DNA of 15,429 nt. Source: Candidatus Micrarchaeota archaeon (GTDB lineage Archaea > Micrarchaeota > Micrarchaeia > Anstonellales > Bilamarchaeaceae). Positions within the stretch are counted from its first letter, which is position 1, and each line of letters opens with the position of its first letter. A program made the position numbers. Of this stretch, positions 3,001-9,000 are shown piece after piece. The DNA lies in assembly GCA_038046765.1 (NCBI GenBank), contig JBBSVN010000013.1, positions 1 through 15,429 of the forward strand, read 5' to 3'.

Positions 3001-6000
3001 CTTAAGACACTTGGACTAATTAACATCCAATATGCAGTTCGAAATGATGTTGTTTATGTTTTAGAAGCTAACCCAAGAGCTAGTAGAACTAATCCATTTG
3101 TTAGTAAATCAATCGGAGTTCCAATCGTAAAAGTCGCGACCAAAGTTATTTTGGGTGAAAAATTATCTAATCTTAATGTACATTCCAAGCAAAAATCTTT
3201 TGCAGTAAAAGGTGTAGTTTTTCCATTTTTAAAACTAGTTGGAAGCGACAGCGTCCTTGGTCCCGAGATGCGAAGCACAGGGGAAACAATGGGGCTAGGA
3301 AAAACTTTTGAAATGGCTTATTATAAAGCGCTCTTATCTGCGGGAGTCAAACTTAAAACTGATTTGGGCGGAAAAGTTCTAATTAGTTTACGTGATGAGG
3401 ACAAAAAAGAAACAAGTAAGCTTGCGAAAATTCTTAGTGAACTAGGCTATGAAATTTACGGTACAGAAGGTACAGTACAAGGTATATCTGGCGCAAATGT
3501 TATTCCTAAAATAGGTAATGGTAAACCAGATATTCTAGATTTAATAAATGAAAAGAAAGTTGACCTTGTGATAAATACTCCTAGAAAAGGAGGTGTTTCA
3601 ACTTCTGATGGATTTAAAATCAGGCGCGCAAGCATTGAAAAGGGAATTCCCTGCATTACGAATATACGAACTGCTTTTGAATTATTAAAGGCGCTAAAGG
3701 AAGTTAAAAATAAGGAACTTGAAGTTAAAGAAATAAGGGAATATTGGGGAGGTTAAACGATCTAGGGAATACTATTTAAACGCGAGTTTCAACAAAATTC
3801 GTTACGGAACCGTTACGGAAACTATTCTCTATCTACAATCTCAGTTTTTGCTTGATCTAAGTATCCTATGTCTTCAAGAGCCTCTGCAGCTTTTTTTCTT
3901 GTTTTTCTTATTCCATTACTCATTTCATGTAGTCCTGAAGTTATTGATTTTCGTCTATTTGCAAATAGCATTATTCCTACACCCATTAGAACTCCTAATC
4001 CACCTGCTTGAAGAGCTAAATTATGTTCAATATCCCAAAAATTTTGGACTAAATTTACAAAATAACTATATGCAGTTACACCTACGCTTGATGTAAGTAT
4101 GGCCGCACCTAATCCTCTTTCAAAAGTAATTACTTGTGGATCCATATCTTTTCTTTTAAGTTCAAATCTACTTAAGTGCATTTCACTTCTTATTTTATTC
4201 TCTTCTTGTTGATATTCAAAAATATTCCTTCCCAAATCCGCTTTTCTTAGTACTATCCCATCAAGTACTGGCGAATATATTTCTCTATTAATGTCCCTAC
4301 GTATATCTCGAAGTTGAGTGGACTGAGCATTAGAAATTTGAGCAGGATGGTTTAGTTTTCTGATCATTTAGACACCGTTAATAGATACACAGTTCTAATA
4401 TATAAACCTTTACTTTTTACCACATTTTTCACTCGCAGGTCTGGGATTGACAACTTACGCACTTATTAAACTCCTGAAGTATGTACTGCCTCGATTTCTA
4501 TAAGCATTTTATTTTTACCCACCCGTGAAACTAAAACGTGCTCATTTCCACTTAAATGCATGTCTCGCTCTAAATCATTTGGAATTCTTAGAATAGTTCC
4601 TCCAGTACTCTTTGAAAGTTTTCTGTGAAGTTTTAATGGTTGTCCCCAAACACCCATACGCCTCGCAACTTCGATTGTTTTTTGACCTTGTTCCTCTGGA
4701 ATAAACTCTTCTTTACAATTTGTGCATCGCTCTCCCTTTTCGATAAATATGAAACCTTCTAATTCCGTAACTATATCATCAACAGAAGCCAGAACTCCCT
4801 TTTCACAGATCGGGCATGATTTTGTAGTATCAGTTTTCATTTAATATCACCTTCCGAACCGCTTATTATAAAAACGGTTTCAAATTCCAAATAATAAACA
4901 AATATGATTTTCTTTCCACCATCTTTTCTTATATATGATTCATATTTATTTTTTCCGATTTTCTCTGTTTTGTATGTTTCTATAAGTGCACTACGTAGTT
5001 GATTATAATCCCAGTCCCACTTACGCATGTACTTATCACGAAAGTGTTTACTAATGTCAAGTTTACATGTGGGAAAGTCTGATATGAAAAACTATACTTA
5101 AAAAGGTTGTGATTTTGGAGAAAATCAAGGATATTCGGGTCTTATCAGAAATGAGTTTTGTATTGTAAATTTTGTGTTTTCCGATTTTGGTTTAGGATTG
5201 TTTTCTTAGCTCGTATTTTTTTACCAATTTATATATGGTATCATAATTCACATCTAATCTTTTTGCTATGGCTGGTATGCTCAAATCTTCATTCAAAAGC
5301 TTTTGCACAATTTCAATTCTACATTCGTCTATTATTTTATTAGGATCATAACGCTTATTAAGTAAAAATTCATAGATCTGATTAAGTGGAAAATTCATCA
5401 AATTTGATAGACGCTGTGCAAAACCTCTTGGTTTGAATTTAGGCCTTAGATTAAATGGATCAAGTTTCAATACTGCTCGTTTAATACTATCTAAATTTAA
5501 AGTTCTATCTTCTGATACCATCTGTCCTATTTGAACTGGGACAGTTGAGGTCGCAGGCATTTTACCAGTAAAAACATAATTATTTACATCAATAACTCCA
5601 CCTTCAGAAAAAACAGCGGCTCGCTCAACAAAATGTTTCAAGTCCCGAACGTTTCCGTTAAATCTTTGGGATATTGACCCAAGTTTTTCCAGAGCATTAT
5701 CTGAAAAAATCAATCCTTTTCCATATTCTTCACTTAAAAGCTCTAAAAAATGACTAACTAAGAGCGGAATGTCTTCTACTCTCTGCCATAATTGTGGCAT
5801 GTCTATTGTTAATCCAGTTAATCTTGAATAAAGGTCTCCCCTAAATTTACCACTTGCTATCTCCATTCTAAGATCTTTATTTGTAGCTGCAACTAAACGA
5901 AATTCTATTTTTTGAAATCGATCACTGCCAAGAGCTCGGATTTGTTTGTACTCCAGAGCTCTTAATAAAGCAGACTGAACATGCATTGGCATATCTCCAA

Positions 6001-9000
6001 TTTCATCTAAAAAAAGTGTTCCATTTTCAGCACACAAAATAGCTCCGCGCCTATCATTATACGCTCCTGTAAAAGCACCTTTGACATGACCAAATAATTC
6101 GCTTTGAAGAAGTTCGCCATTTGGAGTCGCAGCGCAATTTAGAGGAACTAAATCTCCTTTTCTACCGCTTTCTTTATGTAGTGCTTGAGCTACTAACTCT
6201 TTACCCGTGCCGCTTTCTCCAGTTATTAAAATAGGAAGTTTTGCTGGTGCAGCTCGTTCAATAATTAGTCTAATCTCTTCAATTTTTGGACTCTTTCCAA
6301 CAATTCCAAAGCGTCTATGCTCCAGAGGAATAGAAGAAGGTCTACCAATAACAATTGCTGCAACCATATTTATCAAATATTATATTGTTACAAAAAGTAT
6401 ATAAATAGTTAATAAATTAGATGTAAAGTATTTTGTCTATGTTTTTGCTTAGATCATGTTCGCCAGAAGAAAATGAGATCTTATCGTAAGTATCGAAGAT
6501 ACTTTTGTACTTCTTTTTGCTTTTTTTCTTTGTTTTACTTTTTGTCATAATTACTCCGGTCTCTCGGGTAACAGTCCCGCTCTTTTTACAATTACATACG
6601 CAAGAACTGTTGAAATAATTGTCGAAGCGACTAATAAAATTATATACCAATTAGCATCTTTTGGACCTAGATTAAAAATAGTTCCGCTAAGCGCTGTTGC
6701 AAGCGTATTTGGAACTAAAACCGCAGTTCCAACAATCGTTAAATATGCCATCAGTAATGCAATCCTATTGTTAAGTATCTGCAATTGGTTGTTGTATATA
6801 CTTTGTAAAACTTCAAACCCGCTAGATAAAACTGCGCTTAAATGTTCTGCTAAACTTATCTGATGTGAAACTGAATCGACAACATTTCCAAATTTTCCAA
6901 GGATAACCTCATCATCAGTAAATAATTTTGCATCTCCATACTTAAATGAATTAAGGACATCTACGGTAATCCACAAGCCAGATAAATAAGAAATTAATGC
7001 ATGTTTCATCTTATGTATCTCTTTGCTGATTTGTGTTCTTGAAAATTTAGGGTCTGCTAGTTTGCTACTTATAGAATCGGAATGTTCTTGTATCTCCTTA
7101 AGATAATCGAAATTTCGGTCATTATTTTCATCAATTAGACGAATAAACAATAATGATAAGTTGTCTTCTGCTTTATGTTTTGGGTTTAATTTGCCAAGCA
7201 TAACTTTTCCATACCTTCTTAATCTGACAAACCTCTGGACTTCTTTGGAATGTATTGTCAAAACTAGATTTTCTTTAACTAGGATATAAAGAGAATTTAA
7301 TTTAACAATAAATCCAGACACAGTTATAGATGGAATTATTATTGCTAATTCGGAATCAAAATCTTCGTATCTTGGTTTATCATTTGAGAATACCTTTAAA
7401 AGAAAATCCTTACTAAATCCAAGTTCAGGCGAAATTTTGTTTGCTGTTTTTTCAATTTCATCAGTTACAATATCTACCCATGAAATAAAGTTGGTTTTGA
7501 CCATATCAGGAATTCCATTCGTTTCTGTTGCAGCGAGCGAAGTGGTTTTCCCATTTTTGGACAAAGATACGCAGTAGATATTCTGATTGTTTGTGTTTTC
7601 CATGTTTATCCCGTACTAACAAATCCAAAGTAAACTAGAACAAGTCCCAAGAGAATTAAGAAAGCACCGTAAACAATCGCGCCAATCGTTCTTCTTTTTG
7701 GGTCAGTCATAAATTTAGCAAATGCAGCTAGTTCAAGCGCAAATACTAAAACTCCGATACCAACCGCAAGCATTTTTGATAAATTCCACGTTAAGTTTGA
7801 GTTTATTCTAACAAAGTGCAATACTGAAAACAGATATGCTAAATAAACCAATCTGTGAAGGCGCTTCCAGTTTTTAGCCCCCAATTTAGCTGTTGCCCAG
7901 TCAGTTGAAGTCAAATACAGTGGTAGATAAATTGCAAATGCCATACTTCCAAAAAGAATCGCATTTTCTAGTGGATTAAGGTTTGCAAATATTGCGCTAG
8001 GTCCAATTTGTAAAAAGATTGAAACTGCGAGCATGTGAACTATTGCAAAAGTGAATCCCCAAACTCCAAGAGTTCTTCTATGTGTAATATAATTTATTTT
8101 TGGAACTAATATTGCAAGTGGTCCAACAATTAATGCTAGTCCAATCAGTTCTGCTGCAACATAAGCTGCTGAAAGTAATATCGCCCTGTTCAATGAACCT
8201 GCTAAATTTGTTAAAAATAAATAAAAGAATTGTATGAGCCAGAATGCAATTATCACTGCGCTTGATTTTAGTACGTAGCCAATGTTCTTTTTTGCGCCAG
8301 CAAATAGTTGCGGGCCTGTTTTTGTAGTTGCTGCTGTATTCGCTGTTCCGCCTTGCATCTCTACCTCGATATCATTTCCAGTTACGCGAACTTTAAATGC
8401 CTCAACTGCTTTTGGTGCTGGTGCTCCAAGTACTGCTCCTGTTTTTATATCGAACCGTGCATTATGGAGCGGGCATTGGATTGCACCATTTTCTATTGTA
8501 CCATCGCATAGCGAACCTCCGGCATGAGTGCATGTATTATCAATCGCGTAGTATGCTCCATCCATTTTGAAAAGTGCAAGTTTTGTTCCCCCTGCGGTAA
8601 TTCCAAGAGGTTTACCTTCAACAACATCGCTTACTTTCGCTACTTTGAAAAATTCTTTAGCGCCTGTTTTTAGCATTTGCGTGCGTGGCACTGGTTTTGC
8701 AATATTCGCTTTAGTTCTTGAAAATGAAAGTAAATTCGCATAAATATTTGAATTGCCAGTTACTAAGTCCGCCACTATAGATGAAGCAAAAGTCCCAAAT
8801 ACTAAGCCGTTTCCTCCAAACCCGCAACAACTTCCTACAAATACTTTTCCTTTATAATGTGGGTGTTCAGAAGCATAGGGTAAACCATCTGATGAATCAA
8901 ATAAACTTCCTGACCAGGTGTTTGTTACCTTAAATTCTGTTTTAAAGTATTTTTCTAAAAAGTTTTGTAACTTTAAAAATGGCGATTCTTTTGAAGGCGG

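Follow-up and report, generated by a model that had tools for sequence, protein, structure and literature searches.

A family of bacterial-type enhancer-binding ATPases with a conserved GAFTGA loop in Candidatus Bilamarchaeaceae, archaea in which no sigma-54 was found

The window analysed here, a stretch of 15,429 nucleotides from a Candidatus Micrarchaeota archaeon, carries the gene of an enhancer-binding-type AAA+ ATPase. The features of this locus, all on the reverse strand, are given below with the grounds for each in brackets.

5192..6367, reverse strand: gene of a 391-aa, sensor-less enhancer-binding-type AAA+ ATPase (translation and profile matches)
6385..6408, reverse strand: archaeal core promoter made up of a TATA box and a downstream element, the TATA end lying about 31 nt before the ATG (conserved ahead of the family's genes)
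6305..6367, reverse strand: 21-aa leader, Arg/Pro-rich, of low model confidence, with no signal peptide (sequence and model)
5804..6304, reverse strand: AAA+ alpha/beta core, Sigma54_activat, residues 22-188 (Pfam and structure match)
6200..6220, reverse strand: Walker A, GESGTGK (sequence motif)
6062..6079, reverse strand: GAFTGA pore loop, residues 97-102, with K96 just before it (sequence motif)
6002..6016, reverse strand: Walker B, LFLDE (sequence motif)
5822..5845, reverse strand: arginine-finger motif, FRGDLYSR (sequence motif)
5582..5785, reverse strand: AAA+ lid with sensor II GNVR (Pfam AAA_lid_14, residues 195-262)
5207..5503, reverse strand: lineage-specific double helix-turn-helix (HTH) tail (six helices in an AraC-type-like arrangement, the last HTH Fis-like)

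The translation of 5192-6367 gives 391 aa with zero internal stops (a start at the in-frame TTG of position 6376 would lengthen it by 3 aa), and Sigma54_activat matches residues 22-188 over the full length of the model (positions 1-167 of 168, E 5.3e-59), which confirms the class assigned to the protein in a preliminary description, as does the unbroken GAFTGA at residues 97-102. The sensor domain is indeed absent, since just 21 residues stand ahead of the ATPase domain, and the PADLOC RtcR_PspF2 match (E 8.9e-81), which spans profile positions 163-409 of 481 only, lacks the CARF part as had been stated. None of the NCBIfam equivalogs reaches its cut-off, the best being RtcR with 276 of 650 bits, and PspF attains 204 of 444 bits. 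The predicted model of the ATPase matches the structures of FleQ (6jdi, E 3.7e-24, rmsd 2.1), NtrC4 (3dzd, rmsd 1.3) and PspF (2c99).

The C-terminal HTH announced earlier is present (Pfam HTH_28 and HTH_23, residues 350-386), but it belongs to a unit of about 100 aa with two HTHs, whose fold is confidently modelled, and is not a single HTH. This unit occurs in 17 of the 19 family members described below and in full in none of 85 bacterial homologues; among the proteins checked it is confined to those of the Ca. Bilamarchaeaceae family. Its copies share a median identity of 18%, up to three are detected per motor, and motor-less tail genes exist, some adjoining the motor gene and some apart from it. 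The best structural matches are AraC/XylS DNA-binding domains (3mkl, Rns 6xiu, ToxT, MarA), whose arrangement of two HTH units in tandem the tail resembles (Z 8.9, rmsd 3.3 over 97 residues, TM 0.57, a Z that helical bundles can attain simply through a common arrangement). They differ from the tail by an identity of 10-16% and the lack of any Foldseek match at E<=0.001, and HTH_18 matches weakly in 3/26 tail units. The search of a 5.8-billion sequence set with the tail region returned nothing beyond the protein's own cluster, and the TAL-effector matches of the tail profile were discarded as sums of many non-significant repeats.

The ATPase has not just one full-length relative, as first thought, but belongs to a whole family of 19 genes in 17 of the 99 Ca. 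Bilamarchaeaceae genomes, 82 of which show none, with a core identity of 35-72% (median 43%). The conservation of GAFTGA in the other archaeal copies, left unchecked in the preliminary description, is now established: G[AS][FY]TGA is found in 19/19 (GAFTGA in 10, GSFTGA in 7, GAYTGA and GSYTGA in one each), Thr100, Gly101 and Ala102 being invariant. Walker A, Walker B and the arginine finger are also kept in all copies and the sensor II Arg in 18, and so are, in 19/19, the equivalents of NtrC1 I203, K213, F216, T217 and L263, presented in the accessible part of PMC11839083 as DNA-contact and pocket residues of the sigma-54 grip. Positions near the loop are partly relaxed (E88 is kept in 68%, and the basic residue at 145 is mostly lost), and the Trp before sensor II is found in 0/19 archaeal members versus 103/114 bacterial rows. 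The family's loci have no conserved neighbour gene, and the distances between the ATPases are unrelated to those between the TFBs (rho 0.004, 134 pairs). Only quick trees were made; the one of 58 rows places the window protein beside three bacterial rows with weak support (34), and a single origin of the archaeal family is not rejected (p-AU 0.83).

TATA-like boxes precede 19/19 genes of the family. The promoter at 6385..6408 is the top-scoring site of the genome with a matrix built without that site; the pattern ranks first in 11/19 loci, occurs in its exact form at no more than one site per genome, and also stands upstream of two unrelated genes, one of which is by eye a ribosomal-protein gene. 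It is doubtful that this promoter is the tail's operator, given tails that are 18% alike, the G120 gene, which has the promoter without the double-HTH tail, and the two unrelated genes. We conclude from these sequence comparisons that a once-bacterial ATPase is long resident in Ca. Bilamarchaeaceae, where it has an archaeal-type promoter, all its catalytic motifs and its whole peptide-gripping pore, no sensor domain and a fast-changing double-HTH tail. The captured bacterial activator of the preliminary description is upheld in part: the data support an ATPase of bacterial derivation, domesticated in archaea without detected sigma-54 and kept under purifying selection.

The protein most resembles the sensor-less bacterial enhancer-binding proteins (EBPs) of type Ic (PspF, HrpR, LafK), which, in the portion of Francke et al. 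2011 (PMC3162934) available to us, have the same AAA+ core, Walker A/B, arginine finger, sensor II, intact GAFTGA, lack of signal domain and C-terminal HTH. It differs from them by its archaeal host without a found sigma-54, its archaeal promoter, the lost Trp before sensor II, the double-HTH tail, which can be repeated or free-standing, and its score below the PspF equivalog cut-off. The homologues TyrR, HupR, HsfA, PhhR, NtrX, VpsR and DhaR are of the same ATPase family and have no sigma-54 partner function (excerpts of PMC6158489, PMC3162934); they have an altered or deleted GAFTGA and work with the bacterial sigma-70 polymerase, whereas the archaeal family has an intact motif in 19/19 and no bacterial polymerase. 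The CARF-AAA-HTH regulators of the RtcR type give the best HMM score for the core, but they carry an N-terminal CARF domain that the archaeal ATPase lacks, and their cut-off lies far above its score.

The statement that the genome shows no sigma-54 is borne out: neither Sigma54_DBD nor Sigma54_CBD has a match at E<=10 in the genome of the window (G000, 89.7% complete), and two sigma-54 domains are over the cut-off in 0/176 genomes of the order, which are incomplete and include all 17 carriers. In particular, sequences like sigma-54 region I (PF00309) are over the cut-off in 0/176. The -24/-12 sites of the window's genome are not in excess (39 at the right spacing versus 34-89 at five wrong spacings), on which ground a borrowed sigma-54 polymerase acting on the archaeon's own genes was rejected. 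An intact sigma-54 motor with no sigma-54 found would therefore act on a touched bacterium or be re-aimed at an archaeal target.

The model we propose, tentatively and by narrow preference over a native substrate, is that of a constitutive activator delivered as an effector and acting on the sigma-54 of a contacted bacterium. Judging from the solved homologues, the ring would always be on, the tail would hold it on DNA, and ATP would drive the pull of an N-terminal peptide through the GAFTGA loops. This peptide would still be sigma-54 region I, encountered in the cytoplasm of the contacted bacterium, and the result would be a signal-free switching-on of the partner's sigma-54 promoters, as with the lone ATPase domain in Salmonella; in the sections of PMC3844500 at hand, a sensor-less ATPase domain activates nearly all sigma-54 promoters. 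A bacterial sigma-54 as target is supported by the conservation of the loop and of the five grip residues at so low a median identity. It is also supported by the pairing of motif and sigma-54 in bacteria, which co-occur almost perfectly, two sigma-54-less species having replaced the Thr (PMC3162934, in part), and by the described sigma-70-type homologues, all with altered GAFTGA in the available text of PMC6158489. The lack of a detected sigma-54 and of a -24/-12 excess likewise favours a contacted bacterium.

The model is further supported by other modules that serve the bacterial polymerase: Sigma70_r2 occurs in 26/99 family genomes, full RpoD-like proteins are among the 15 sigma-70 loci read, the window's genome has three sigma region-4-only genes, and an alpha-CTD-like orphan occurs in the family. 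Patchy presence, no kept neighbour, TFB-unrelated distances and tail expansion fit a conflict-gene pattern, which also supports an effector. The family's sigma-70, region-4 and alpha-CTD-like genes would be parts of the same kit. However, this model is weakened by the lack of a signal peptide or basic C-terminus (a signal-peptide-like stretch in 0/19 of the leaders, which are Arg/Pro-rich and acid-poor) and of wall-attack domains in the window's genome (no M23, PG_binding_1 or SLT; SLT in only 9/99 family genomes), by the relaxed near-loop positions and by sigma-70 genes that do not co-occur with the ATPase (5/17 carriers, 21/82 others), a distribution that also led us to reject sigma-70 as its partner. 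The Asn-Gly motif of about half of the leaders was rejected as an export signal, with no N-terminal enrichment in that genome (25/1403 versus 2.3% background), and three DUF87-type ATPases found there would be no more than candidates for a delivery machine. Also against an effector, we found no paper assigning a bacterial host to a DPANN archaeon, the Micrarchaeota hosts listed in the literature consulted are archaea, and Anstonellales are read as possibly free-living (available parts of PMC12892359, PMC8561730). Moreover the EBP pore grip is largely hydrophobic and slippery (PMC12054792, in part), so that another peptide could hold the same residues under selection.

That Ca. Bilamarchaeaceae deliver into contacted bacteria a transcription-hijacking kit (the always-on sigma-54 activator, proteins of the sigma-70-like, region-4 and alpha-CTD-like kinds, and perhaps a part of the 13 Ser/Thr kinases) is a speculative extension, which we regard as unlikely. 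If true, it would be a case of an archaeon reprogramming the RNA polymerase of bacteria, members of another domain, and would account for the bacterial sigma genes in DPANN genomes. Those of fam00359 (Castelle et al. 2021, 10.1101/2021.01.12.426361 / PMC8204110), for which mis-binning was ruled out and whose function is unknown, are likewise bacterial transcription parts beside TBP/TFB, and Ca. Bilamarchaeaceae also carries such sigma-70 genes. Enhancer-binding ATPases are absent from the text of that paper. Table S3 of the same work has no Sigma54, sigma-54 or PF00158 entry and a single NtrC match, to a family of 219 aa (HTH_8+HTH_8) that 25% of Woesearchaeota carry. No description of the present family was found in the literature outside subscription papers, and the supplements of PMC12892359 and PMC8561730 might list its genes.

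Almost as plausible is a motor re-aimed inside the archaeon, which would be DNA-bound by its tail, thread a native protein by its free end and remodel a DNA-protein complex; a repressor, a chromatin protein, a polymerase subunit or a motor-less tail protein are the substrates proposed. This reading widens the idea of the preliminary description. The same conservation of pore and catalytic residues, the slippery grip, the tail restricted to the family among the proteins checked, the motor-less tail genes, the promoter conserved along with the gene and the absence of an export signal all speak for it. It lacks a candidate substrate, kept neighbours and a regulon (no genome has more than one exact copy of the promoter pattern), the divergence of the tails fits poorly with one shared operator, and most of the family's genomes do without the gene. 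The TBP/TFB complex, first put forward as a possible target, is not supported: TFB is conventional, 82-92% identical in the 30 genomes searched, with 4-19 residues ahead of its zinc ribbon, hence no N-terminal extension, and has zero diagnostic columns that would separate 15 carrier genomes from 14 non-carriers. Some other native target, not TFB, is still a close rival of the model we prefer.

EBPs are regarded as so exclusively bacterial that the proteomes of 380 archaea could be used as a clean negative control in finding them (PMC12316311, in part), and an entire archaeal family retaining the sigma-54 grip with no partner found breaks the bacterial rule linking motif and sigma-54. Two outcomes are conceivable: a second substrate of the motor, or an action of these uncultured archaea on bacteria, implying unassigned hosts or prey. 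Why do DPANN archaea keep bacterial transcription genes? Through this ATPase family the question becomes directly testable.

Less probable is an ATP-switched DNA-binding regulator that threads nothing, in which the ring would only bring the tails together, so that they loop or occlude DNA in a repressor-like manner, and GAFTGA would be retained for the mechanics of the ring and for touching DNA. The double HTH and a conserved promoter that could be self-regulated suit such a protein, and in the available parts of PMC12054792 and PMC11839083 the loop Phe packs on the adjacent subunit and the loops make contact with DNA; yet bacterial homologues of such a mode (TyrR, NtrX, VpsR) have altered the motif (PMC6158489, PMC3162934, both in part), Thr100, Gly101 and Ala102 are invariant here, and the G120 gene keeps the promoter without the tail.

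A sigma-54 homologue too diverged to detect, or lying in unassembled parts, is very improbable: the genomes are incomplete and other sigma-type genes are kept in the family, but both domains stay below the cut-off in all 176 genomes, the -24/-12 sites show no excess, and the window's genome has no bacterial RNA polymerase alpha domain (an alpha-CTD-like match occurs in 6/99 family genomes; the single protein examined among them is not RpoA). The worry of a recent, idle transfer or a mis-binned bacterial piece is hardly credible and we reject it, along with that of a relic, for although the window contig is short, with a tetranucleotide use somewhat away from the centre (10% of 91 windows are more distant), and three look-alikes in the phylum resemble bacterial or mobile contigs, the 19 genes in 17 genomes are intact, with host-like codon use, GC3 that tracks the flanking GC (r 0.92, n=19), archaeal-type promoters, a shared Trp loss and tail, a common origin not rejected, and in the window a neighbouring 124-aa gene with only archaeal look-alikes.

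These three look-alikes, taken for probable bacterial or mobile contigs and not counted in the family, are G056 (long N-terminal domain, WPGN, a 2.9-kb contig, 6% contamination), G327 (NifA-like by eye) and G039 (truncated, next to repeats and an integrase-like gene). The genes of G217 and G317, which keep WPGN and have different tails, were held separate as other acquisitions. In a phage collection, 39 records gave core-only matches below 60% identity, and those among the matches listed are mostly bacterial genes.

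By domain and motif, the protein of the window's ATPase gene is a member of the enhancer-binding family without its defining partner. Its elements are the following:

5192-6367, (-): ATPase gene, reading frame of 391 residues
residues 22-188, (-): Sigma54_activat (Pfam, E 5.3e-59)
residues 97-102, (-): GAFTGA
residues 195-262, (-): AAA lid (Pfam)
residues 289-387, (-): tail unit of about 100 residues (profile)
residues 350-386, (-): HTH (Pfam)

Only 21 residues precede the ATPase, which leaves no sensor domain, and the AlphaFold2 model (pLDDT 86, 15-row alignment) superposes on FleQ, NtrC4, NtrC1 and PspF with rmsd 1.3-2.5. 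Domains, model and leader bear out the preliminary description of a sensor-less activator-class AAA+ protein with an unbroken GAFTGA and a helix-turn-helix at its C-terminal end. The single full-length relative then known gives way to a family: Sigma54_activat (E<=1e-20) occurs in 19 of the order's 176 genomes, of which 17 belong to the 99 of Ca. Bilamarchaeaceae and together hold 19 genes, and a phylum sample of 401 genomes adds three further matches beyond the order. Matches in G056, G327 and G039, on contigs that are probably bacterial or mobile, were left out, as were those in G217 and G317, taken to be separate acquisitions. The source names of cluster members are Candidatus Micrarchaeota and Candidatus Bilamarchaeaceae. 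Archaeal housekeeping genes and orphans surround the 19 genes, including neighbours that we take, by eye, to be Lon, IleRS, ValRS and ThrRS; no neighbour is conserved throughout the family. The sensor-less ATPases of G217 (L066) and G317 (L067), from other Micrarchaeota families, retain WPGN, with the Trp ahead of sensor II, and carry different tails, with GAYTDA in the former and GAFTGA in the latter. Two family members, of 1928 aa (L045:6661-12447, G004) and 1054 aa (L055:5889-9053, G102), have long low-complexity inserts separating their tail units.

The cores of the 19 are 35-72% identical (median 43%, compared with a TFB median of 89%). All 19 have Walker A, Walker B and the arginine finger, and 18 have the sensor II Arg. 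Whether GAFTGA is kept in the other archaeal copies had been left to be checked; the pattern G[AS][FY]TGA is found in 19/19 (GAFTGA 10, GSFTGA 7, GAYTGA 1, GSYTGA 1). According to the accessible part of PMC11839083, K213 of NtrC1 contacts DNA and F216, T217, L263 and I203 form the pockets gripping sigma-54 region I; their equivalents, assigned via the offset from GAFTGA, are K/R, F/Y, T, V/L/I and L/I/V in all 19. In 85 bacterial homologues, 61 positions are conserved to 90% or more; the family holds 34 of them at that level, while 8, mostly lid positions, are clearly relaxed. Relaxation is partial at E88 (68%) and at the basic residue 145. In bacteria, as excerpts of PMC3162934 have it, sigma-54 and intact activators coincide almost perfectly, and Fusobacterium and Jannaschia, without sigma-54, have replaced the Thr of the motif; TyrR, HupR, HsfA, PhhR, NtrX and VpsR all have it altered (PMC6158489, in the part available), whereas the family motif is intact. 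The pore is therefore still selected to grip something. The sequences show an ATPase that is intact, selected and promoter-bearing, that has its full grip and a tail of DNA-binding type, and that lacks a sensor, with no sigma-54 found at home.

By analogy with the available portions of PMC12054792 and PMC11839083, the ring would be always on and would draw in an N-terminal peptide while seated on DNA. We tentatively place first, at less than an even chance, bacterial sigma-54 inside a contacted cell as the substrate, since this needs no new chemistry, explains why the motif is unbroken and takes in the sigma-70 and alpha-CTD-like genes as well. An ATPase domain by itself switches on nearly all sigma-54 promoters (PMC3844500, in part). 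Against a contacted bacterium stand the papers found, none of which reports a bacterial host of a DPANN archaeon, the view of Anstonellales as possibly free-living (passages of PMC12892359 and PMC8561730), and the genome itself (G000), without M23, PG_binding_1 or SLT; SLT occurs in 9 of the 99 family genomes, and strong matches (E about 1e-27) lie at L187 (G036) and L188 (G023). Peptidoglycan hydrolases are reported to be prominent in Nanoarchaeota (PMC12352652, in part), which gives some precedent for DPANN archaea acting on bacteria. The 19 ATPase leaders (7-44 residues) contain no signal peptide; compared with 881 G000 proteins they are rich in Arg (9.7 vs 5.0%) and Pro (7.4 vs 3.6%) and poorer in acidic residues, among kin that are not independent. 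Arg-rich N-terminal leaders are shared by the kinases of G000 (13 Ser/Thr-type matches in 1.5 Mb). Three DUF87-type ATPases of G000 are no more than possible as the delivery part. An identical 24-nt promoter is common to three orphan or kinase genes (C4:193957, C4:139156, C1:22978).

Other parts made to work with a bacterial polymerase occur in the family. Of the 99 genomes, 26 have Sigma70_r2, with as many as 4 paralogues; G000 has none, and there is no co-occurrence with the ATPase (5/17 carriers, 21/82 others). Many of the 15 loci read (L156-L170) encode full RpoD-like proteins among archaeal-looking neighbours, one or two being possible contaminants. Many have basic N-terminal extensions, and several adjoin what we take, by eye, to be a CobW-like GTPase gene. 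Three orphans of G000 (L148-L150) have a sigma region 4 of the bacterial RpoD type (best E 5.8e-15) and no region 2:

C5:75446-76318: region-4-only gene
C6:2825-4117: region-4-only gene
C7:6576-7550: region-4-only gene

Alpha-CTD-like matches occur in 6 of 99 genomes; the single one examined, a 364-aa protein with repeated domains of this kind (L171:868-1962, G117), is an orphan and not RpoA, and the other five are weaker.

A native substrate comes close behind bacterial sigma-54 in likelihood, since the pore grip is slippery, and it too falls short of an even chance. TFB, which the preliminary description had in view as part of a possible target, does not appear to fill this place, judging from its sequences: it is conventional in 30/30 genomes searched, and 15 carriers and 14 non-carriers differ consistently in none of its columns.

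That the protein is a DNA-looping regulator without any substrate seems unlikely to us.

The tail profile finds one to three units in 17 of the 19 copies, at a median identity of 18% between units, and no full unit in the 85 bacterial homologues. It is present in 17 of 99 family genomes, 16 of them motor carriers, an overlap largely due to profile construction. Motor-less tail proteins occur directly behind the G025 motor (L051:2551-4389, four units), at L212 (G136) and at L222 and L225 (G023); they may be paralleled by fam04645 (PMC8204110 Table S3), a 219-aa HTH_8+HTH_8 family of 25% of Woesearchaeota, nowhere else in that table. The tail model (pLDDT 95.5, six helices) has no Foldseek match at E<=0.001; the structures closest to it are double-HTH domains of the AraC type (Z 8.9, rmsd 3.3 over 97 residues, TM 0.57), a likeness which is one of arrangement rather than membership. 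In a 1.84-billion library the profile gave 3609 matches, and of 149 examined among the best 150, 11 have the ATPase core; the remainder mostly cover part of the profile, as generic HTH repeats.

A hidden sigma-54 in these archaea is improbable. G000 (1.52 Mb, 89.7% complete, 0.15% contamination) has one TBP and one TFB gene; neither Sigma54_DBD nor Sigma54_CBD matches it at E<=10, and it has no excess of -24/-12 sites. None of the 176 order genomes exceeds the Sigma54_DBD and Sigma54_AID cut-offs that four sigma-54-bearing controls do exceed; G000 remains, as first described, without visible sigma-54.

The ATPase family is a long-resident, domesticated and lineage-wide one in Bilamarchaeaceae. 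GC3 tracks flanking GC (r 0.92). A TATA-like box, under a loose definition, lies 22-49 nt upstream of the start in 19/19, a similar pattern preceding 576 of about 1620 G000 ORFs. With a matrix built from relatives' promoters only, the window gene ranks first in G000 (24.6 vs 20.3), and leave-one-out matrices give rank 1 in 11/19 loci; the exact pattern occurs once in each of 9 of 99 genomes, 7 being genes used to build it, and so gives no sign of a regulon. The Trp ahead of sensor II is lost in all 19 proteins and retained in 103 of 114 bacterial rows, chosen for likeness to the query. Quick core trees place family copies on long end branches, none nested closely within a bacterial clade; with the 19 family rows and 39 of those bacterial ones (58-row tree) the family label requires 2 changes vs 16 for shuffles, the window protein grouping weakly with three bacterial rows. 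A tree constrained to unite the 19 lies 27 log-likelihood units above the free tree found (p-AU 0.83), so that these alignments allow, and do not prove, a single origin. Contig C13 is inside the G000 tetranucleotide range, and its 124-aa gene adjoining the ATPase has archaeal look-alikes only. With host-like GC3, TATA-like boxes and the shared Trp loss, the recent idle transfer or mis-binned piece feared earlier, or a relic, is very improbable.

Going by searchable papers, which yielded no description of it, this is an undescribed variant of the enhancer-binding family within archaea. In the available text of PMC12316311, a set of 380 archaeal proteomes yields no sigma-54 activator; that of PMC5847659 mentions three unfinished archaeal genomes with REC-AAA-HTH proteins, all unlike the sensor-less Bilamarchaeaceae type, and that of PMC7408454 holds nothing on archaeal sigma-54-type activators; sigma-70 of unknown role is reported in DPANN (Castelle et al., preprint, in part; PMC8204110 supplement searched). 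The window further contains:

66-455 and 3822-4367, both (-): two orphan genes without family matches
4466-5028, (-): overlapping 63-aa and 124-aa genes
7606-9900, (-): 764-aa protein that joins FAD oxidoreductase, Rieske and ferric-reductase-like membrane domains
11909-15429, (+): secreted-looking beta-helix/Ig-repeat surface protein, continuing past the contig end

The 124-aa protein resembles the archaeal zinc-finger/AbrB type, and the pair is likely toxin-antitoxin-like. The orphan at 3822-4367 has a predicted membrane hairpin, and the oxidoreductase fusion stands in one run with corA. The surface protein is divided between two overlapping frames near 12507-12547, possibly by a frameshift.
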